Assembly: GCA_001818365.1 (NCBI GenBank)
Contig: MHKK01000037.1
Coordinates: 1 to 25,119, forward strand
Origin: Candidatus Komeilibacteria bacterium RIFCSPHIGHO2_01_FULL_52_14
GTDB lineage: Bacteria; Patescibacteriota; Patescibacteriia; UBA1558; 2-01-FULL-52-15
Direction of reading: 5' to 3'
DNA length: 25,119 nt
Made by a program: the position numbers and the translations under genes. Below the pieces are notes generated by a model. It was not told the origin of the DNA. It searched no databases and saw only the letters and a program-made list of their open reading frames with translations. Shown one piece after another: positions 6,257 to 24,612 of this stretch (its first letter is position 1; each line of letters begins with the position of its first letter).

Positions 6257-6285
6257 TTGACGAATTTTGCCAATTATGCTATATT
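6257..6285 (+). promoter_or_regulatory. putative sigma-70 promoter: TTGACG, 17-nt spacer, TATATT
   Basis: -35 at 6257-6262 and -10 at 6280-6285. The predicted TSS near 6292 lies 8 nt before the ATG at 6300. Confidence 0.4.
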
Positions 6286-6299
6286 CGGCCATATCCACT

Positions 6300-7397
6300 A
6301 TGGCAACATCAATTCTCGACCAAGTACTGTCTTCGCAGAAGCAATCCGCTATTTCTCAGTTTGACCCTGAGCAAGTGGCTGCTAAGCTTTTTTCGATACT
6401 TTCAGAGCGCGAGCAGGACATTCTTGTGCGGCGCTATGGGCTTAAGGGAAAGGAAAAGATGACCCTTGAGGAAATCGGCAAGCAGTATTCGGTCACCCGG
6501 GAGCGCATCCGACAGGTTGAAAATGCTTCGATCAACAAAATACTGAGCGAATACCGCGATTCACTTCTGCGTGATCTTGAGGCGCTGATCCGCGACGTAC
6601 TTGAGGACCACGGCGAGCTTATGTCCGAGAATCGCCTGGTGCAAAATCTTCTCGACACCGACGCCGAGAGCGATCAATCGAAGGCGCTGGTACATTTCAT
6701 GCTGAACCAGCTTCTCGCGGAACGGCTGCAACTCGTCCGTGAATCCGATGCCGTCTATAAGACATGGTCGCTGCAAGCGGCACGATGGGATGAATTTCAT
6801 TCGATTATCGACCGGCTTGTCGAAATAATCAAAAAGCACAATGAGCCGCTCCGCCTCGAGCAGTTGCTCGACCGGGCCCGTGGAGCGGTATCCGTTCCCG
6901 AGGACGATTTCGAGCGTATTCTCGTAAACTATCTCGACGTCACGAAAAAAATTGAGGAGAACCGATTCAACGAGTGGGGTCTTTCGCATTGGAGCTTGAT
7001 CCGTCCTCGCCGCATGAACGATAAAATTTATCTGATACTGAAGCGTGAAACAAAGCCCTTGCACTTCGTTGAGATCGCAAAGCGAATCAACGATTCAAAT
7101 TTCGACAAGCGCGTTGCCTACCCTGCGACCATTCACAACGAGTTGATACTCGACGATAAGTATGTCCTGGTCGGGCGCGGCATCTATGCCCTCAAGGAGT
7201 GGGGTTATAAGCCCGGCGTCGTGCTGGACGTCATCAAGGACATCCTTCGTGAGAACGGCGCCATGTCCAAAGAGGAGATTATCACCGCGGTTTTGAAGAA
7301 CAGAATGGTAAAGAGGAGCACAGTGGTTCTCGCACTCATGAACAAGAAATTCTTTGCCAAGGATCAGGACGGCCGGTACGTGCTTGTGCAGTCATAG
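6300..7397 (+). CDS. predicted DNA-binding regulator with an N-terminal sigma-70 region-4 HTH and a C-terminal HARE-HTH (RNAP delta-subunit-like) domain. It is not a complete sigma factor.
   Basis: Region-4 signature: LSEREQDILVRRYGL..KEKMTLEEIGKQYSVTRERIRQVENASINKIL. The C-terminus PLHFVEIAKRIND...ATIHNELILDDKYVLVGRGIYALKEWG follows the HARE-HTH pattern. No sigma regions 2 or 3. The ORF track starts at TTG 6267; the ATG at 6300 (MATSILDQ...) is preferred because it lies downstream of the promoter. Confidence 0.7.
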   Translation: MATSILDQVLSSQKQSAISQFDPEQVAAKLFSILSEREQDILVRRYGLKGKEKMTLEEIGKQYSVTRERIRQVENASINKILSEYRDSLLRDLEALIRDVLEDHGELMSENRLVQNLLDTDAESDQSKALVHFMLNQLLAERLQLVRESDAVYKTWSLQAARWDEFHSIIDRLVEIIKKHNEPLRLEQLLDRARGAVSVPEDDFERILVNYLDVTKKIEENRFNEWGLSHWSLIRPRRMNDKIYLILKRETKPLHFVEIAKRINDSNFDKRVAYPATIHNELILDDKYVLVGRGIYALKEWGYKPGVVLDVIKDILRENGAMSKEEIITAVLKNRMVKRSTVVLALMNKKFFAKDQDGRYVLVQS

Positions 7398-7424
7398 TGA
7401 CGCGGGACAGAAAAACACAAACCC

Positions 7425-8948
7425 ATGCTGCCAGACATTAATGCGTTTTTGATTCAACTTGCATCGAAAAGTCCACTCGAGGTCGGGTGGATTTTGTTTA
7501 TTAAAGGCGGGTGGATCATCCTTGCCGTCATGACCATCCGCGCCATGCTGTTGATACGGTTGTATCAACTGCAGGGCAAGTACCTTCGCAAATTTGAATA
7601 CGTACTGCTCGCGATCGACGTACCCAAGGCAAGTGAGCAAACTCCGAAAGCCATGGAACAGGTTTTTGCGACGATTACCGGGGCTCACCAGGAGATCAGC
7701 AGGCGCACGAAATACGGAACAGGAGAGGTCCAGCTCCAATTTTCTTTTGAGGTCGTCTCACTGGACGGGTATGTTCAATTCCTCGTTTACACGCCAAAAA
7801 TTTACCGTGACCTCGTCGAGGGAGCCATCTACTCGCAGTACCCCGACTGCGAGATTACGGAGGTAGAGGACTACACCAAGAATATCCCGTCGGTATGGCC
7901 AAACGATCAGTATAAACTCTGGGGGTCGGAAATTGTTCTGGCAAAAAAAGAAGCATACCCGCTTCGCACCTACCCTTCGTTCGAAGATCAGCTCTCGCAG
8001 GAGCTCAAGGACCCGCTTGCGTCGCTCATCGAAAATATGAGCCGTATCCATCAAAACGAGCAGGTCTGGCTGCAGATGATCCTCGTACCGACCGAGAACG
8101 TCGTGTGGGTCAAACGCGCCTTAAAGGAGGCCTATAAGATCGCCGGGAAAAAGACCAAGGAGGAACAAAAAACCGGATATCTGGACAGGATTCTGTCTCC
8201 GCTTTATAACTTCCCCAACTGGTTCTCGTGGCTAGCAACCGGAGGAGGCGAAACGAAACGGGACCAGCAATTCGATTTCCGCGTGCTCAATCTCACCCCG
8301 GGAGAGCGGGCGTCTGTCGAAGCCATAGAGAAAAAAGCATCAAAGCTCGGCTATATCGTTAAAATGCGTATCGTATATCTGTCGACGCCGGAACAATATC
8401 AGCCGGCGCGCGTCATTAATTCCGTTTTCGGTGCCATCAAGCAGTTCGGCGATCTGACGTCCAATTCACTGAAGCCCAACAAAAAGACCAAAACATCGGT
8501 CGTCTGGTTCAAGTTCAGATCAAAAGGCAAACAAATCCGACTCATGCGCAACTATAAGAACCGGTCATGGTTCCGCGGCTCCAAATGGTATATCCTTAAC
8601 GTAGAGGAGCTCGCCACGCTGTATCATTTCCCGTCGATAACCGTCACGTCTCCGTATCTCAAGCGTACGGAAACCAAAAAGGGCGAGGCACCGGTCCAGT
8701 TGCCGGCAAGCATTGTCGAGGAGAAAGCGGCCGAGATCGGCTCGCTCAAGACCGAGCTTGAAGGTCTGGATCTCGATAATGATTATTACGAGCAGAAGTA
8801 CGGCAAATATCGGGTGCCAAAGCCGCAAAACCTCACAGAGAAGCAGGCGACCGTCGTTGAGAAGCCGACTCTCGATACACGCTCGGATAAACCCGAGCAG
8901 GAAGCTGAATCAAAGTCCACAGCCCCAAGCAATTTACCTCTCGGATAA
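7425..8948 (+). CDS. single-pass membrane protein of unknown function (507 aa). It is homologous to the N-terminal half of the 829-aa protein at 22123-24612.
   Basis: Has an N-terminal TM helix (WILFIKGGWIILAVMTIRAMLLIRL). Alignable blocks with the 22123 ORF include FEYVLLAIDVPK vs HDILLITIPK and ILNVEELATLYHFPS vs LLNSEEMVSLFHLPE. Its TAA stop overlaps the ATG of the next gene (TAATG). Confidence 0.75.
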   Translation: MLPDINAFLIQLASKSPLEVGWILFIKGGWIILAVMTIRAMLLIRLYQLQGKYLRKFEYVLLAIDVPKASEQTPKAMEQVFATITGAHQEISRRTKYGTGEVQLQFSFEVVSLDGYVQFLVYTPKIYRDLVEGAIYSQYPDCEITEVEDYTKNIPSVWPNDQYKLWGSEIVLAKKEAYPLRTYPSFEDQLSQELKDPLASLIENMSRIHQNEQVWLQMILVPTENVVWVKRALKEAYKIAGKKTKEEQKTGYLDRILSPLYNFPNWFSWLATGGGETKRDQQFDFRVLNLTPGERASVEAIEKKASKLGYIVKMRIVYLSTPEQYQPARVINSVFGAIKQFGDLTSNSLKPNKKTKTSVVWFKFRSKGKQIRLMRNYKNRSWFRGSKWYILNVEELATLYHFPSITVTSPYLKRTETKKGEAPVQLPASIVEEKAAEIGSLKTELEGLDLDNDYYEQKYGKYRVPKPQNLTEKQATVVEKPTLDTRSDKPEQEAESKSTAPSNLPLG

Positions 8949-10687
8949 TGGATCAAAAAGCAAACAGCGCAATTACCGTTTTTGCCGCAACGAACTTCCG
9001 CAATAAGCAGCAGCGTTTCGGTATCAAACGCGAAGACCGGCGACGCCACATGTACCTTATCGGTAAAACCGGTATGGGTAAATCGCAGTTGCTGGAAAAC
9101 ATGGCGATTCAGGATATCAGAAACGGCAACGGCGTAGCGGTCGTGGATCCGCACGGCGACATGATCGAGCGGATTTTGCGATTCGTCCCGCGCGAGCGGA
9201 TCAACGATGTCGTCTATTTCAATCCCGCCGATCTCGAGTATCCGATTGCGTTCAACGTGCTCGAGAAAGTTTCTCCCGAGCAGCGTCACCTCGTCGCATC
9301 GGGGTTGATAGGCGTTTTTAAAAAGATCTGGGCCGATTCCTGGGGACCCCGTTTGGAGTACGTTCTGCATAATGCCATTTCTGCGCTTCTGGAGTACCCG
9401 AGCTCAACGCTCTTGGGCATCATGCGCATGCTCACCGACAAGAACTTTCGCAAGCGCGTCATCATGAAAGTAAACGACCCGGTCGTCAAGGCCTTTTGGG
9501 TTGACGAGTATTCCAAATACCCTGACCGGTTCCAGGCCGAAGCGATCGCGCCGATTCAAAACAAAGTCGGTCGCTTTTTGACATCGTCATTGATGCGCAA
9601 CATCGTCGGACAGGTAGCCTCAACGATCAACATCCGCGAAATAATGGATCGCGAAAAAATATTTTTGATCAACCTTTCCAAGGGACGCGTCGGCGAAGAC
9701 AATTCGTCATTGCTCGGCGCCCTTCTGATTACGAAGATGCAGCTCGCAGCCATGAGCCGCGTCGACGTGCCGGAAACGGAACGTAGAGATTTTTATCTTT
9801 ACGTCGACGAGTTCCAAAATTTCGCAACGGAAAGTTTTGCCGGCATCCTGTCCGAGGCGCGTAAATACCGTCTCAATCTGGTTCTTGCGCACCAATACAT
9901 TGCACAGCTTATTAACGATGCGAACAGTCAGGTCCGTGATGCCGTATTCGGCAACATCGGGACTCTGATTACGTTCCGCGTCGGCGCAGCCGACGCCGAG
10001 TTCATGGAGCCGGAATTCGAACCGCAGCTCACGATGAACGACCTCGTCAATCTCCCAAAGTACCATGTGTATTTGAAGCTCATGATTGACGGCGTCACCT
10101 CGAACGCCTTCTCCGCAACAACGCTGCCCCCGTACACCATCCCCGAGGATTCTGCGGAAGTTGTTGAAAAGATTATCAAATCCTCCCGTGAACGGTATGC
10201 GAAACCCCGTGAGGTCATCGAGGATAAGATTATCCGCTGGGCGGAAAACAAAGGCGATGGTGAAGGCAGCGCTGATGCTCGCGACGCTGGTCAAGCACGC
10301 GACACGAGGGATCACGAACCTCGGCGCACTGTACCGGCTGCAAGTCGACCGTCTCGACATGATGCGGCCGACACCGGCCCGGCAAAGCAGCTTTTTAGCG
10401 CTATTTGCTCGAATTGCGGCAAAGCGACCGAGACCAAATTCAAGCCGGATCCGAACAGACCTGTGTATTGCCAGGACTGCCTGCAAAAAATTAAGAGGGG
10501 AGAGTTGCCTTTAAGGCGCGAGATGCCCGAGCCACCCCGTGCAGTTTCACTGGCCGAAGCGATTGCCATGCACCAAAAACACGGACCACCTGTGCAAAAC
10601 CACGGCCAAATTGCTGAAAAAAAGCATTCCGAGCATATTTTACAGCCAAAACAAGTTGTATCGATCCCGCATAGCAGTAACACCTAG
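8948..10687 (+). CDS. FtsK/HerA-superfamily P-loop ATPase (HerA/DUF87- or VirB4/TraG-like) with a C-terminal low-complexity linker and a CxxC...CxxC zinc ribbon. It is homologous to the C-terminal half of the 829-aa protein.
   Basis: Walker A is YLIGKTGMGKSQ and a VVDPHGD motif follows, as in HerA/DUF87. Walker B is LYVDEFQNF. Arg/Gln sensor block: EARKYRLNLVLAHQYIAQL. The tail is CSNCGK...KFKPDPNRPVYCQDC. Confidence 0.8.
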   Translation: MDQKANSAITVFAATNFRNKQQRFGIKREDRRRHMYLIGKTGMGKSQLLENMAIQDIRNGNGVAVVDPHGDMIERILRFVPRERINDVVYFNPADLEYPIAFNVLEKVSPEQRHLVASGLIGVFKKIWADSWGPRLEYVLHNAISALLEYPSSTLLGIMRMLTDKNFRKRVIMKVNDPVVKAFWVDEYSKYPDRFQAEAIAPIQNKVGRFLTSSLMRNIVGQVASTINIREIMDREKIFLINLSKGRVGEDNSSLLGALLITKMQLAAMSRVDVPETERRDFYLYVDEFQNFATESFAGILSEARKYRLNLVLAHQYIAQLINDANSQVRDAVFGNIGTLITFRVGAADAEFMEPEFEPQLTMNDLVNLPKYHVYLKLMIDGVTSNAFSATTLPPYTIPEDSAEVVEKIIKSSRERYAKPREVIEDKIIRWAENKGDGEGSADARDAGQARDTRDHEPRRTVPAASRPSRHDAADTGPAKQLFSAICSNCGKATETKFKPDPNRPVYCQDCLQKIKRGELPLRREMPEPPRAVSLAEAIAMHQKHGPPVQNHGQIAEKKHSEHILQPKQVVSIPHSSNT

Positions 10688-10719
10688 AAAATGCTATACT
10701 TTCATACAGTAACATTGAT

Positions 10720-11361
10720 GTGGATAACTTCAATCATCAAAAATTAATTATGCACAAAGAAAAAAAAGGATTCACCCAGCACCACTTTTTAAGTGGTAGC
10801 CATGGGTCAAGAATAGTGTCGAGTAACAAAAGTGGTGCCAGAAAGCTGGGTTTACCCAGCACCACTTTTAGCACCAAAAGTGGTGCTGGGTTCACGCTTA
10901 TCGAGCTTATCATCGTTGTGGCAATCATCGGACTGCTTGCCGCAGCGCTCTATGTGGCCATCGATCCGGCTGCACGTCTCGGTAATGCACGTGATGCGCG
11001 TAGGTACGCTGACGTAACGGCTATACTGAACGCAATTTTACAATATACGTCAGATACCTCAACACTGCCGACGCAGCTTGATTGTGCAGTAGGCACTTAC
11101 TGCATGATTCAGAATGGTGGTAGTGCTTCCGACGAAACAACGGGATCGAACTGCACGGAGCTCGATAGCAACCCGCCAACAGCTATGGCGATCGGATTAT
11201 CGTTAGTTGATAAATACCTTGCGTCTATCCCAATAGACCCGAGCGCAGCTTCCACTGCAACGAGCAGCTCAGGTTATTACCTAAAGCGATCAACGAGCGG
11301 TCGAATTACAGTCGGGTCGTGCACGAAATACCAAACTGCCTCAATCGAGGTCCAGCGGTAA
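10720..11361 (+). CDS. type IV pilin / pseudopilin (class III signal peptide, GFTLIEL N-methylation motif), copy 1, with an unusually long N-terminal extension
   Basis: KSGAG|FTLIELIIVVAIIGLLAAALYVA is a canonical prepilin-peptidase site and hydrophobic alpha1 helix with Glu+5. Four Cys are present in the C-terminal globular part. The ORF-track start is GTG. The true start is uncertain because the roughly 57-aa leader is atypical. Confidence 0.8.
   Translation: MDNFNHQKLIMHKEKKGFTQHHFLSGSHGSRIVSSNKSGARKLGLPSTTFSTKSGAGFTLIELIIVVAIIGLLAAALYVAIDPAARLGNARDARRYADVTAILNAILQYTSDTSTLPTQLDCAVGTYCMIQNGGSASDETTGSNCTELDSNPPTAMAIGLSLVDKYLASIPIDPSAASTATSSSGYYLKRSTSGRITVGSCTKYQTASIEVQR
10772..10890 (+). 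promoter_or_regulatory. structured leader element of pilin copy 1, built from repeated and inverted GCACCACTTTT / AAAAGTGGTGC blocks and including a perfect 15-bp-stem palindrome
   Basis: CCCAGCACCACTTTT-AGCACC-AAAAGTGGTGCTGGG lies at about 10854-10890. Additional copies at about 10774-10797 (ACCACTTTTTAAGTGGT) and 10827-10838 (AAAAGTGGTGCC) allow mutually exclusive pairings. Confidence 0.5.
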
Positions 11362-11417
11362 CATGACCAGGACGCATCTCCCGTAAGAGACGCACAAGAG
11401 CGCCGTTAGTTTGAGCT

Positions 11418-12023
11418 ATGAAGACCGCGAATGGATTCACCCAGCACCACTTTTCAAGTGGTAGCCATGTGTCAAGGCTAGTGTCGAGTAACAAAAGTGG
11501 TGCCAGAAAGCTGGGTTTACCCAGCACAACTTTTAGCACTAAAAGTGGTGCTGGGTTTACGCTTATCGAACTCATCATCGTTGTGGCAATCATCGGATTG
11601 CTTGCGGCAGCACTCTATGTTGCCCTTGATCCTGCAGGTCGCATTGGGAGGTCCCGCGATGCACGGCGATATACCGATGTGTCTGCCATATTGAATGCCA
11701 TATTGGAATATACGGCCGATACGACTACGTTGCCAACGAACGTCGCTGCTCTCAACACCGATGTCTACTACGTTGTTCAAAACGGCAGCAACGGGCAGGT
11801 CACTGCCGAAACAAGCATTCCGTGCAACGAAACGGGTATCCGTAACGGAGTCATCCTGGGTTCGCAACTCGTCAGTAAATATATTTCTACGATACCGCAG
11901 GATCCGAGGATCACCACAGCAACCAGCTCATCGCAATACTATATTCGTAAAACGACCAATGATAGAATCACCATTGGAGCATGTGAACACTATCAGTCGG
12001 GTTCGGTGGAAGTGCAGCGATAG
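11418..12023 (+). CDS. type IV pilin / pseudopilin, copy 2 (tandem paralogue)
   Basis: Has the same leader and GFTLIEL N-terminus as copy 1. The first roughly 190 nt are about 90% identical at nucleotide level; the globular C-terminal domain is divergent. ATG start. Confidence 0.8.
   Translation: MKTANGFTQHHFSSGSHVSRLVSSNKSGARKLGLPSTTFSTKSGAGFTLIELIIVVAIIGLLAAALYVALDPAGRIGRSRDARRYTDVSAILNAILEYTADTTTLPTNVAALNTDVYYVVQNGSNGQVTAETSIPCNETGIRNGVILGSQLVSKYISTIPQDPRITTATSSSQYYIRKTTNDRITIGACEHYQSGSVEVQR
11437..11555 (+). promoter_or_regulatory. structured leader element of pilin copy 2, duplicate of the copy-1 element
   Basis: Same block arrangement. The central palindrome CCCAGCACAACTTTT-AGCACT-AAAAGTGGTGCTGGG at 11520-11555 has one stem mismatch. 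Confidence 0.5.
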
Positions 12024-12099
12024 CATCTCGATCAGAAGTATCAAAATTACGGTCATCCCCTCGATTCCGTTACACCGCAGCGCGGGGTAACGGGGTTGA

Positions 12100-12160
12100 C
12101 CCCTCACCAGAGCCCTGGTGAGGGGTCTTCGTCGCTGCGCTCCTTGACAGGGGTTTTTTT
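12100..12160 (+). terminator. putative terminator region after the pilin genes
   Basis: GC-rich hairpin CCCCTCACCAG-AGCC-CTGGTGAGGGG (11-bp stem) at 12100-12125, followed 28 nt later by GGGG TTTTTTT at 12150-12160. Outer complementary CGCAGCG/CGCTGCG segments flank it. Confidence 0.4.
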
Positions 12161-21652: not shown

Positions 21653-22126
21653 ATGGTAGAGAGTTCTCAAGAGCGAATTCCCCAGCGCACCAACGAGCAG
21701 CCAGCTCCGATGCGGCAGACCGAGCGGGAATCAAAACTCGAGCAGGCGTCCGAGCGTCAACGGTCGGCTGATGAGCAGGCGGCAGCCGCAGTTGCCGCTA
21801 AAATTCGTGAAACCGCGGGTGCCAGACCGGCGATCATGGTGACGGCCAAGGATCCGGAACTCAAAGCAATCGAAGATATTCTTGCCGAGGGTTTGGAGGA
21901 ATTTTTTTTAAACCTGCCGCCGTCGGACCAGCAATCATTTAAACGAACAGGCGAGGAAACGGCGCAGAAAATACGGATTGTCATACGGAAGAAAACATCG
22001 CGCATCAAGGATATCGTTGCATTGATCGCAAAATGGCTTAAAGCGCTCCCCGGCATCAATCGTTTTTTTCTTGAGCAGGAAGCGAAGATCAAGGCCGACA
22101 AGATAGTTCAGCGTTTCCGATTATGA
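21653..22126 (+). CDS. small hypothetical protein (about 158 aa from the ATG at 21653) with a low-complexity Q/E/R/A-rich N-terminus and a conserved-looking C-terminal half. It is start/stop coupled (ATGA) to the downstream 829-aa gene.
   Basis: The open frame overlaps the downstream gene by 4 nt. The ORF-track start at 21584 would overlap corA. The internal M at MVTAKDPELK is an alternative start. Confidence 0.45.
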   Translation: MVESSQERIPQRTNEQPAPMRQTERESKLEQASERQRSADEQAAAAVAAKIRETAGARPAIMVTAKDPELKAIEDILAEGLEEFFLNLPPSDQQSFKRTGEETAQKIRIVIRKKTSRIKDIVALIAKWLKALPGINRFFLEQEAKIKADKIVQRFRL

Positions 22127-24612
22127 TCTGGCAACTGATCGCGATTCTGATCTTACTTCTGTTTGCTTTCACACTCGTGATCCTTTTTCGCGTTGTTTTG
22201 AAAAATAGAAAGCGCCGCAGCTACAAACACGACATACTGCTCATCACCATACCGAAGTATGCCGATCTTGGTAGCAAGCAGGAAATCCCGATTAAAGAGC
22301 GCCTTTCGCAGGTAGAAAACCTTTTTGCATCGCTCGCGTCAACCCGGGCAGAACGCGGCATCGAGCCCTATTTTACGGGCAGAAGCGACCACTTTGCTTT
22401 GGAAATGGTTTCACATGACGGAAGCATAGGTTTTTACGCAGCACTCCCGCCGCAAGCCACCGAATTTTTTATCCAGCAGACGCAGGCCGTCTACCCGCAC
22501 GCGCACTTTGAGCGCGTCTCCGACTATAATATTTTCCAGCCGCATGCCGCCGTCTTAAGCGGCCATCTCGTCTTCAGGAGGCATTTTATTTTTCCGCTGA
22601 AAACATATCGCTCGTTCGATCACGATCCGATGGATGCCGTGATGAGCGCCCTGTCCAAAATTCCCCGCGATTCGGGAGCCACCATTCAGTTCGTTATTCG
22701 CTCGGCACGCAAGGAATGGCATGCGGAGGGACGTCGCATCAGCAAAGAAGCGTATCGCACCTCGTCGCTTCAGGAAGCGTTGAAGAGCGCAAAATCCAAG
22801 AGCGGTTCTTCTGTGGTTTTCCACGCGCTCGGCAGCACGGCACGCGTCGTCGGCTCGACGTTCGTAAGCACGCCGAAAAAGGACAAAGAAAAAATACCGA
22901 CCATGCAGCAGCATACCTTGACTCCACAGGAACAGGAGGCGGTCAAAGCGATCGAGGAAAAAAATAATAAGGGCGGCTTTGACGTCAACATCCGCATCAT
23001 CGTTTCGGCTCCGGACTCGCAGCATGCGGAAGCGCATCTGCGAAACATCATGAACGCCTTCGGCCAGTACAACAGTTACGAATTCGGCAACGCGTTCAAG
23101 CCGCTCTTTCATCATTCGCACGACAAGATTGTCAATGATTTTATTTACCGGTACTTCAATCCGGCAGCTTCCCTCCTGCTGAACTCAGAGGAAATGGTCT
23201 CACTTTTCCATCTGCCGGAACGCACGACCGTATCCAATGTGCTGTGGCAAAAAGCGCGAAGCGCTCCGCCGCCGATGGAGATGCCCACGGAAGGAATTCT
23301 GTTCGGTCATTCAGTGTATCAGGGAGCGACGGTCGAGGTCCGCATGAAAGACACTGACCGGCAACGGCACGTATACATGATCGGGCAGACCGGTACCGGA
23401 AAATCGAATCTTCTGGAGTCCCTGGCGGTGCAGGACATCAAAAGGGGAGCAGGCGTATGCGTGATCGACCCGCACGGCGATCTGGTTGATCATATTCTGG
23501 GGAATGTCCCTCCTGAGCGGTACAAAGACGTCATTATTTTCGATCCTTCCGATACGGACCGGCCGCTCGCACTCAACATGATGGAATTTACAACGCCGGA
23601 GCAGAAGACCTTTGTCATCAACGAGATGATATATATCTTCGATAAGCTCTATGACCTTAAAACAACCGGGGGCCCCATGTTCGAACAATACATGCGGAAC
23701 ACCATGTTGTTGATGATGGAGGACCCCGCGTCCGGTTCGACGCTGTTGGAAATTCCAAGGGTACTGGCGGACGAAAAATTCAGACGCTACAAGCTCACGA
23801 TGACAAAAAACCCGGTCGTCCGCGATTTCTGGGAGAAGGAAGCCCACAAGGCGGGCGGCGATGCGTCCCTTGCCAACATGGTGCCTTACATCACGAGTAA
23901 GCTGAATCAGTTCATCGCGAACGATATCATGCGGCCGATCATCGCACAGCAGAACAGCTCGTTCAATTTCCGCGACGTGATGGACTCCCAAAAGATACTG
24001 CTGATAAACCTTTCAAAGGGACGCATCGGGGACCTCAACAGCATGCTGCTCGGCATGATCTGCGTCGGGAAACTTTTGATGGCGGCGTTGAGCAGGGTGG
24101 ACGTCGAGAAGGAGCTTCGCAAAGATTTCTACCTTTATATCGACGAGTTTCAGAACTTCGTGACGGAGAGCATTGCCGTCATACTCTCCGAAGCCCGAAA
24201 GTACAAGCTCAACCTGACGATGGCGCATCAGTACATAAATCAGCTGGTGAAGAACAACAACACCAACGTCAAAGACGCCGTCTTCGGCAACGTCGGCACC
24301 ATCATCGCTTTCCGCGTTGGCGTTGACGATGCCGAGCCCATTGCTCAGCAGTTCGCTCCCGTGTTCGATAAATTCGACGTCATGAATATCGAAAAATACC
24401 ATTGCTATATCCGTCTCCTGATCGACAATCAAAACCCGCCGGCGTTCAGTTTTAAGCCGACACGGCCGCCTGCCGGCAACCGGGCCGTTGCGCAGTTACT
24501 CCGTGAGCAGTCCCGTCTCCGCTACGGGCGCCCGCGGGCGGAGCTTGAAAAGGAGATATTCACCCGAACGAGCATACCTGCGGCTCCCGCCCCCTTGCCG
24601 CCGATTGCGTAA
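22123..24612 (+). CDS. membrane-anchored FtsK/HerA-superfamily ATPase (829 aa). It is a single-polypeptide paralogue of the gene pair 7425-8948 plus 8948-10687.
   Basis: N-terminal TM helix. The N-terminal half aligns to the 507-aa protein. The C-terminal half has Walker A YMIGQTGTGKSN, VIDPHGD, Walker B LYIDEFQNF, and EARKYKLNLTMAHQYINQL. It has no zinc-ribbon tail. Confidence 0.85.
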   Translation: MIWQLIAILILLLFAFTLVILFRVVLKNRKRRSYKHDILLITIPKYADLGSKQEIPIKERLSQVENLFASLASTRAERGIEPYFTGRSDHFALEMVSHDGSIGFYAALPPQATEFFIQQTQAVYPHAHFERVSDYNIFQPHAAVLSGHLVFRRHFIFPLKTYRSFDHDPMDAVMSALSKIPRDSGATIQFVIRSARKEWHAEGRRISKEAYRTSSLQEALKSAKSKSGSSVVFHALGSTARVVGSTFVSTPKKDKEKIPTMQQHTLTPQEQEAVKAIEEKNNKGGFDVNIRIIVSAPDSQHAEAHLRNIMNAFGQYNSYEFGNAFKPLFHHSHDKIVNDFIYRYFNPAASLLLNSEEMVSLFHLPERTTVSNVLWQKARSAPPPMEMPTEGILFGHSVYQGATVEVRMKDTDRQRHVYMIGQTGTGKSNLLESLAVQDIKRGAGVCVIDPHGDLVDHILGNVPPERYKDVIIFDPSDTDRPLALNMMEFTTPEQKTFVINEMIYIFDKLYDLKTTGGPMFEQYMRNTMLLMMEDPASGSTLLEIPRVLADEKFRRYKLTMTKNPVVRDFWEKEAHKAGGDASLANMVPYITSKLNQFIANDIMRPIIAQQNSSFNFRDVMDSQKILLINLSKGRIGDLNSMLLGMICVGKLLMAALSRVDVEKELRKDFYLYIDEFQNFVTESIAVILSEARKYKLNLTMAHQYINQLVKNNNTNVKDAVFGNVGTIIAFRVGVDDAEPIAQQFAPVFDKFDVMNIEKYHCYIRLLIDNQNPPAFSFKPTRPPAGNRAVAQLLREQSRLRYGRPRAELEKEIFTRTSIPAAPAPLPPIA

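Follow-up and report, generated by a model that had tools for sequence, protein, structure and literature searches.

Two Patescibacteria pilin genes with a probable tandem insertion of a small palindromic mobile element at their prepilin cleavage sites

Two type IV pilin genes lie in tandem on a contig of a Komeilibacteria bacterium (CPR/Patescibacteria), and both carry palindromes within their leader codons. We conclude, with a probability of roughly 0.8, that these palindromes result from the insertion, in tandem, of a mobile palindromic element that is dispersed among genomes; the insert would be read through in translation, and its product is probably removed with the leader. In both genes, the 120 nt between two Gly-Phe-Thr sites consist of two tandem copies of a palindromic element placed at TTCA, within Phe-Thr codons. 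The scenario that we favour starts from a small ORF-less element whose ends are inverted repeats, (C)CCAGCACCACTTT(T), around a variable centre, and which is often bounded by a 4-bp TNNA target duplication. It would have inserted into the Phe-Thr codons of the prepilin cleavage site, leaving a partly decayed copy A and an intact copy B. The right junction would regenerate Gly(-1)/Phe(+1), and the left junction would leave a dead pseudo-site made of G-F-T and the arm-encoded QHHF. Translation most likely starts at the original ATG of the pilin and runs on across the insert, after which prepilin peptidase would cut at the downstream site and yield a normal mature pilin. Throughout, the window is the whole 25,119-nt stretch of DNA analysed, and an arrow marks the cleavage site.

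Pilin leaders and anatomy of the insert

The first-pass annotation put about 50 open codons ahead of the real class III site, G↓FTLIEL; both ORFs are indeed open from an ATG, for 47 (gene 1) and 46 (gene 2) codons. That site has the expected form in both genes, with Gly at -1, Glu at +5, about 20 hydrophobic residues and the string AG↓FTLIELIIVVAIIGLLAAALYVA; in gene 1 it reads G↓FTLIELIIVVAIIGLLAA, and the PF07963 N_methyl domain was matched with E = 3e-7. At 47 and 46 aa, however, neither leader is of the short hydrophilic kind, and both exceed the 6–26 aa of prepilin leaders in described systems (PMC4471445). The ancestral leaders, of 7 aa in gene 1 and 6 aa in gene 2, are still present 5' of the insert (Table 1), and the two pilins share the layout MxKxxG-FTQHHF...KSGAG↓FTLIELIIVVAIIG. 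Excising 10775–10894 from gene 1 restores MHKEKKG↓FTLIEL, and the equivalent removal from gene 2 restores MKTANG↓FTLIEL. Apart from the insertion, the pilin leader is ordinary.

Table 1. Coordinates of the pilin genes and of the parts of their inserts (window positions)
Feature	Position	Strand	Description
Pilin gene 1	10750–11361	+	203 aa; same protein as P0001 from a Candidatus Komeilibacteria MAG
Ancestral short leader MHKEKKG, gene 1	10750–10770	+	Gly codon GGA at 10768–10770; the empty orthologous L119a has MHKREFKG↓FTLIEL
Left target copy TTCA	10771–10774	+	inside Phe-Thr codons; makes pseudo-site G-F-T
Element copy A, 76 nt	10775–10850	+	left arm CCCAGCACCACTTTT, degenerate reverse half AAGTGGTAGCCATGGGT, spacer ending AAGAATAGTGTCGAGTAAC
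Copy A right arm	within 10775–10850	+	AAAAGTGGTGC[CAGAAAGC]TGGG, with 8-nt interruption
Middle target copy TTTA	10851–10854	+	between copies A and B
Element copy B, 36 nt, intact hairpin	10855–10890	+	terminal GCTGGG encodes Ala-Gly(-1)
Right target copy TTCA	10891–10894	+	supplies the first bases of the true Phe(+1)-Thr(+2) codons in the mature pilin
Pilin gene 2	11418–12023	+	201 aa, P0002
Gene 2 composite	11436–11559	+	same build, +665 relative to gene 1
Gene 2 parts	TTCA 11436–39; copy A 11440–11515; TTTA 11516–19; copy B 11520–11555; TTTA 11556–59

The two copies contribute 80 and 40 nt to the insert, and each follows the scheme C-CCAGCACCACTTT(T)...(A)AAAGTGGTGCTGG-G. Decay shows in copy A as a degenerate internal reverse half (AAGTGGTAG at ~10791), and the reverse block at 10828–10853, its right arm, carries the 8-nt interruption. 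Copy B is intact in gene 1 and has one C>A arm mismatch in gene 2. Three forward and three reverse blocks had been described at first pass; we found two of each per gene. The perfect stem, given there as 15 bp and as ending before the Gly-Phe codons, in fact spans 16 bp in copy B of gene 1 (10854–10869/10876–10891, with the 6-nt loop AGCACC), and it includes the Gly codon GGG (10888–10890) and the first T of Phe. The degenerate second site noted in the same annotation (KKGFTQHHF in gene 1, ANGFTQHHF in gene 2) is indeed present, and corresponds to the left target copy followed by the translated left arm.

Within the window, the repeat is confined to the pilin leaders: GCACCACTTTT and its complement occur eight times in the 25-kb window, all in these two leaders, compared with a mean of 0.34 occurrences, and never eight, in the shuffled window. 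Predicted folding of the leaders is strong, the regions of gene 1 (-56.1 kcal/mol, z = -5.4) and gene 2 (-58.5 kcal/mol, z = -3.5) both being far more stable than shuffled sequences.

Gene 2 has the leader MKTANG followed by the same 120-nt composite as gene 1. The two repeats align with 92% identity, and homology begins precisely at GGATTCAC, 5' of which the leaders are unrelated. Since that homology sets in at the left junction, one paralogue probably received the composite from the other, by gene conversion or homing. Downstream of gene 2, window positions 12095–12160 hold a strong GC-rich hairpin (CCCCTCACCAG...CTGGTGAGGGG) and a terminator-like stem followed by a T-run. No such structure follows gene 1, so the two pilins may be co-transcribed.

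A dispersed family of hairpins

To count the element elsewhere we used the exact pattern CCAGCACCACTTT-N(1–31)-AAAGTGGTGCTGG, with one genome per species. The exact hairpin was found at no fewer than (at least) 117 genome loci, mostly in Patescibacteria; a few non-Patescibacteria MAGs among the matches listed were labelled Spirochaetes, Gammaproteobacteria, Clostridia, Methylomirabilota and Dehalococcoidaceae. A scan of viral contigs gave no match. Pilin G-F-T sites hold 17 of the 123 copies among the matches listed, and most copies are not beside pilins. The same matches include intergenic copies, copies in 16S rRNA (L023, L095) and 23S rRNA (L094), and three group I introns with a copy (L007, L073, L117). 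Six RNase P RNAs also carry one (L033 3795–3834, L107 3951–3996, L114 7562–7606, L109 2948–2980, L070 5868–5914 and L087 7606–7660); their 13-bp arms are the same and their centres differ in each of the six genomes. In L033, the RNase P RNA that was aligned, the hairpin sits at the P13/P14 position. In-frame copies were seen in large ORFs that, to judge from flanking motifs, encode a UvrD-like helicase (L037), LigA (L040), an aminoacyl-tRNA synthetase (L055), LepA (L075), Obg (L089) and DnaE (L098). Rickettsia palindromic elements (RPEs) likewise insert into RNA genes, and both marks of an RPE-like selfish insert, in-frame insertion into unrelated ORFs and presence in RNA genes, were found here.

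Elements have perfect arms of 13–16 bp, which form terminal inverted repeats as in MITEs, and arm spacing ranges from 3 to >250 nt between copies. The centre differs in every CPR copy listed, including copies from the same genome, and in some of them is itself a perfect palindrome. Direct repeats of 4 bp without a mismatch, mostly TNNA, bound 42 of the 121 copies scored among the matches listed, against a mean of 4.7 and a maximum of 12 when the flanks were paired at random; in a further 21 of these copies the flanks match at three of four bases, and 58 have no recognisable target duplication. A 6-bp GTNNAC duplication was also considered and rejected, the per-position analysis favouring a 4-bp TNNA with the C...G as part of the element. 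Immediately next to the core, the two bases of the outer pair vary together (C-G, T-A, A-T) and are complementary in 93% of the copies among the matches listed. At the same loci, nine of 19 imperfect copies have fully mirrored arm changes (for example, CCCGCACCACTTT/AAAGTGGTGCGGG), and two more have one mirrored change.

Two variants of the family were observed besides. In a Spirochaetota MAG (CAWIGG01) and relatives (L036, L045, L051, L052, L093, L099), the same arms surround a conserved centre, GATTGCCYGTCCTC, and are part of a larger repeat, in contrast to the CPR copies, whose centres are all different. At two loci, one with a hairpin only (L098 917–950) and one with a GIY-YIG ORF (L171 ~590–880), an element lies at the apparent extreme N-terminus of DnaE, here identified by its motif; these insertions use TTYA in M..F-[TI]-HLHVHS and recreate G-F as in pilins.

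Reading frame and the cleavage site

Each of the 17 pilin-site copies among the matches listed can be read through in the pilin frame without a stop, and 15 of these open frames extend back to an ATG, after which there is usually a lysine-rich leader with a terminal Gly; the corresponding counts for the other two frames are 2/17 and 0/17. The frame is kept even where the length of the element is not a multiple of three, and in L001 a 1-nt difference in the left flank apparently restores it. Ten candidate frame-breaking insertions were inspected or classifiable and none was real, all being intergenic or in rRNA. Frame conservation together with the lack of a frame-breaking case argues for read-through and against bypass, RNA excision and an internal start.

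Left arms can be read in all three frames, as GFTQHHF, GLPSTTF and GIYPAPLF, and some distant pilin homologues (32–53% identity) carry the left-arm motif in one of these three; conservation is therefore at the nucleotide level. The right junction, by comparison, always reads Lys-Ser-Gly-Ala-Gly↓Phe-Thr, a consequence of the terminal ...GCTGGG of the element and of the duplicated TTYA target. The obligatory Gly(-1)/Phe(+1) is thereby restored on insertion. Since an element placed at the cleavage site rebuilds that site, the extra peptide that it encodes is probably removed with the leader. From the survivorship of copies, the rebuilt Gly(-1)-Phe(+1) probably explains the over-representation of pilin sites (17/123 listed copies), possibly aided by copying between conserved pilin 5' ends.

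Another reading places the start of translation inside the insert at a non-ATG codon, giving a leader of ~23 aa and making the upstream ATG irrelevant; we consider it very unlikely. Gene 1 does have an in-frame GTG at 10822–10824, which could be an alternative start, and rules for start sites in CPR are poorly known, but the right arm and loop of copy B offer no in-frame start. Moreover, the 17 listed loci keep the frame open back to an ATG and a typical short lysine-rich leader ending in Gly, and such a frame would not persist if the ATG were unused. The first-pass annotation had left the choice between an unusually long class of prepilin signal and a non-ATG start: the leader is unusually long, and translation most likely begins at the upstream ATG.

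Orthologous loci and the case for regulation

Locus L118 is syntenic with the window, with genes for a sigma70_r4/HARE-HTH protein, DUF8128, a TrwB-like ATPase with a zinc finger, a pilin, HrcA, GrpE, HSP20 and DnaK. Locus L119 has the upstream part of this order in common with the window and L118, and differs after its two pilin genes. The pilin leader of L118 is MKNKG↓F and those of L119 are MHKREFKG↓F and MGRQNKRKLG↓F, all short and palindrome-free. The first-pass annotation had named orthologues lacking the palindromes as evidence against a conserved regulator in the leader, and the short leaders of L118 and L119 therefore refute that regulator. The gene cluster 5' of the pilins is itself conserved (window 6267–10687, L118 1–3932, L119 1–3348) and encodes, besides the sigma70_r4/HARE-HTH protein and DUF8128, a TrwB/TraD-like coupling ATPase that has a treble-clef zinc finger at its C-terminus. 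A second protein, in which DUF8128 and a TrwB-like domain are fused, is encoded at window 22123–24612.

In one rival proposal, the hairpins would serve pilin regulation in cis, as a dedicated attenuator, riboregulator or thermometer RNA in which 1:2/3:4 versus 2:3 pairing controls pilin expression. Structure prediction is strong, the alternative pairings do exist, and compensatory changes run through the hairpin family. Nevertheless we regard this proposal as very unlikely, as the hairpins are wholly absent from syntenic orthologues, recur in rRNA and RNase P RNA as well as in introns and unrelated ORFs (over 100 unrelated contexts in all), and lie inside the ORF, 8–47 codons after the ATG. 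There is no U-tract terminator after them, and many pilin genes have a single copy, which leaves no alternative pairing to switch. Rfam gave no match on the whole window at gathering thresholds, and a relaxed search of 10600–11700 returned only chance miRNA-like matches. Of the original proposal, then, the alternative pairings stand, as a by-product of having two tandem copies of one palindrome, and the switch does not; similarly, the compensatory arm changes are real, and belong to a dispersed repeat family rather than to the pilin leader. As a secondary matter, hairpins in the pilin mRNA may still have a regulatory role.

Highly improbable, in our judgement, is an insert that goes untranslated, through translational bypassing of the kind seen in T4 gene 60 and yeast mitochondrial byps, or through removal at the RNA level. 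Matching take-off and landing codons (GGA TTC AC and GGG TTC AC) do surround a stable hairpin, and the same hairpin occurs in RNAs where its removal could be tolerable. Yet no stop codon follows the take-off site, and the frame is kept not only at the 17 listed pilin sites but in every housekeeping-gene copy examined, apparently at times by 1-nt compensating indels as in L001; keeping the frame would be unnecessary if the insert were skipped.

A role of the blocks as operators bound by the upstream sigma70_r4/HARE-HTH protein can hardly be upheld: its gene is conserved 5' of the pilin cluster in the window, L118 and L119, but in the latter two the cluster is kept without the blocks, an arm spacing of 3 to >250 nt is a misfit for a dimeric double-stranded DNA operator, and copies are found in >100 unrelated loci.

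GIY-YIG nuclease relatives

In longer relatives, an ORF of ~80 aa for a GIY-YIG nuclease lies between such arms. GIY-YIG ORFs stand between or beside arms in L022, L074, L083 and L124. In L022 and L124 the order is arm, ATG...GIY-YIG, arm and an in-frame G↓FIALI...; in L074 and L083 it is arm, GIY-YIG, complete hairpin and G↓FTLVE. Five ORFs matched Pfam PF01541 with E = 1e-10 to 1e-16, all of them in relatives elsewhere and none in the window, and ORF-bearing relatives with the same or similar ends are L022, L083, L124 and L171. Neither a GIY-YIG gene nor further copies of the element were found within 36 kb of contig including the window. The end of the copy A spacer (...AAGAATAGTGTCGAGTAAC) resembles, in frame, the ...KRI... 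tail of GIY-YIG ORFs and may be a remnant of such a tail, a likeness of sequence that is only suggestive.

One minor pilin was recovered in three states: empty (L203, MTRIEKFRHKG↓FTLVEA), with the hairpin only (L204), and with GIY-YIG plus hairpin (L074). Flanks of the three are near-identical, TTTA is duplicated, and the insertion lies at GGRTTTA^C. In L074 an ancestral start, MTRMTKIEKFRHKG, is seen upstream, out of frame.

At these four loci the GIY-YIG ORF is fused in frame, via a ...KSGAG linker encoded by the hairpin, to a pilin-like protein (L074 3622–4520; L083 5749–4310, minus strand; L022 1752–1120, minus strand; L124 ~600–1100). Judged from sequence, the fused nuclease would make up the 'leader' of a prepilin, ~100 aa long and cleavable. 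Searched against proteins, the GIY-YIG::pilin junction gave 14 matches, with no further fusions indexed.

An independent sample of 74 metagenomic GIY-YIG loci was collected with a narrow GIY-YIG alignment, a first alignment having been too diverse. Exact flanking inverted repeats of at least 11 nt were present in 34 of the 74, whereas mismatched controls mostly had inverted repeats of 6–8 nt. The metagenomic units are 267–326 bp long, their arms start A/T-CCC...CAC, and many have 4-bp direct repeats.

Other GIY-YIG ORFs are bracketed by different perfect 15-bp inverted repeats at the same set of loci. Perfect inverted-repeat families around GIY-YIG ORFs include CCCCGCCCTCTAAGC, CCCCGCACATAAAAC, ACCCCCACACC..., ATCCCTCACC... 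and ACCCCGTTAGA..., all of which start with a C-rich run; loci of these other families are L022 871–1083, L029 5655–5894 and L129–L198. This range suggests many co-evolving lineages of nuclease and arms. The hairpin family is related to units of ~270–330 bp in which such inverted repeats bracket a GIY-YIG nuclease ORF of ~80 aa, and the nuclease is the probable mobilising enzyme.

Discussion

Taken together, these observations allow a broader reading that we put forward tentatively, as possible rather than established: an undescribed class of very small mobile elements in Patescibacteria, for which the prepilin site serves as a 'safe harbour'. One form would be a unit of ~0.3 kb with 10–25-bp inverted repeats, a 4-bp duplication and a single GIY-YIG gene of ~80 aa; the far more numerous form would be ORF-less hairpins in rRNA, RNase P RNA, introns and, in frame, essential proteins. 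The harbour would be safe because the element rebuilds Gly(-1)|Phe(+1), so that the host prepilin peptidase removes all element-encoded sequence. If true, a nuclease fused as a cleavable leader (L074, L083, L022, L124) could come under the control of a strong pilin promoter and be set free in the cytoplasm. It would also suggest a new silent route for a selfish element, namely insertion where a host protease removes the insert, and it predicts that type IV prepilin peptidases tolerate leaders of ~50 to 100 aa.

Mobile elements of CPR are poorly known. Our analysis replaces a 'pilin riboswitch' reading with a testable mobile-DNA explanation, and provides a signature for a dispersed CPR repeat family: (C)CCAGCACCACTTT...AAAGTGGTGCTGG(G), TNNA flanks and GIY-YIG relatives. 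For annotation, it is a warning that QHHF, PSTTF, PAPLF and KSGAG in CPR proteins are translated repeat arms. Members of the family may also lie behind some non-intron GIY-YIG ORFs and short 'uncharacterised insertions' in CPR rRNA genes.

Compared with known regulators and decoding signals, the leaders fit poorly. An attenuator or riboswitch-like leader would not lie inside an ORF, be missing from orthologues, and lack both a U-tract and an Rfam match, and programmed bypassing as in gene 60 or byp is at odds with the missing stop at take-off and the frame kept in 17/17 listed copies. Long-leader prepilins (type IVb/Flp) resemble the window pilins in having a leader of >15 aa with a terminal Gly; the length in the window pilins, by contrast, is due to a recent insertion, the leaders of their orthologues being 5–10 aa.

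The closest known analogues appear to be Rickettsia palindromic elements, MITEs and GIY-YIG homing genes. RPEs are short palindromic repeats that lie in frame in unrelated protein genes and are translated as an extra peptide (PMC10969869). The present elements are likewise short, palindromic, translated and in frame in unrelated ORFs, but have a 28-nt core as against about 100–150 bp and are hosted by Patescibacteria and others; unlike RPEs, they combine a hypervariable centre with the 4-bp TNNA duplication, the GIY-YIG link and the prepilin-site niche. We treat RPEs as an analogue only, set apart by host range and size. With bacterial MITEs (Correia, ERIC, RUP, QMITE) the elements share terminal inverted repeats, non-coding miniatures and occasional in-frame fusions, and part of the copies also have what may be a target-site duplication. 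Unlike in MITEs, however, internal sequence is not conserved between copies, which is a misfit for a classic MITE burst, and in place of a classical DDE transposase partner the ORF-bearing form encodes only the ~80-aa GIY-YIG nuclease.

Tiny palindromic mobile inserts in rRNA and protein-coding genes are familiar from the GC clusters and byp elements of yeast mitochondria, which the present elements resemble in size, palindromic form and choice of sites. Yeast byps are bypassed by the ribosome, whereas frame conservation argues for read-through here. A survey of insertions in CPR rRNA genes described non-intron GIY-YIG ORFs and short uncharacterised insertions, with no mention of inverted repeats, hairpins or pilins (PMC11270868). 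Like free-standing or intron-borne GIY-YIG homing genes and those rRNA insertions, our elements have GIY-YIG cargo, sites in rRNA and group I introns, and empty and filled alleles with matching flanks. They differ from GIY-YIG homing genes in that the ORF lies within 10–25-bp perfect inverted repeats and 4-bp direct repeats, the nuclease is minimal, without a DNA-binding extension, and ORF-less hairpins outnumber the ORF-bearing forms. A literature search that covered the sequences of the arms, the motifs of the peptides and CPR elements of palindromic, MITE or GIY-YIG type found no description of the hairpin family, which, with its exploitation of the prepilin cleavage site, appears to add a variant to the known kinds of selfish DNA.
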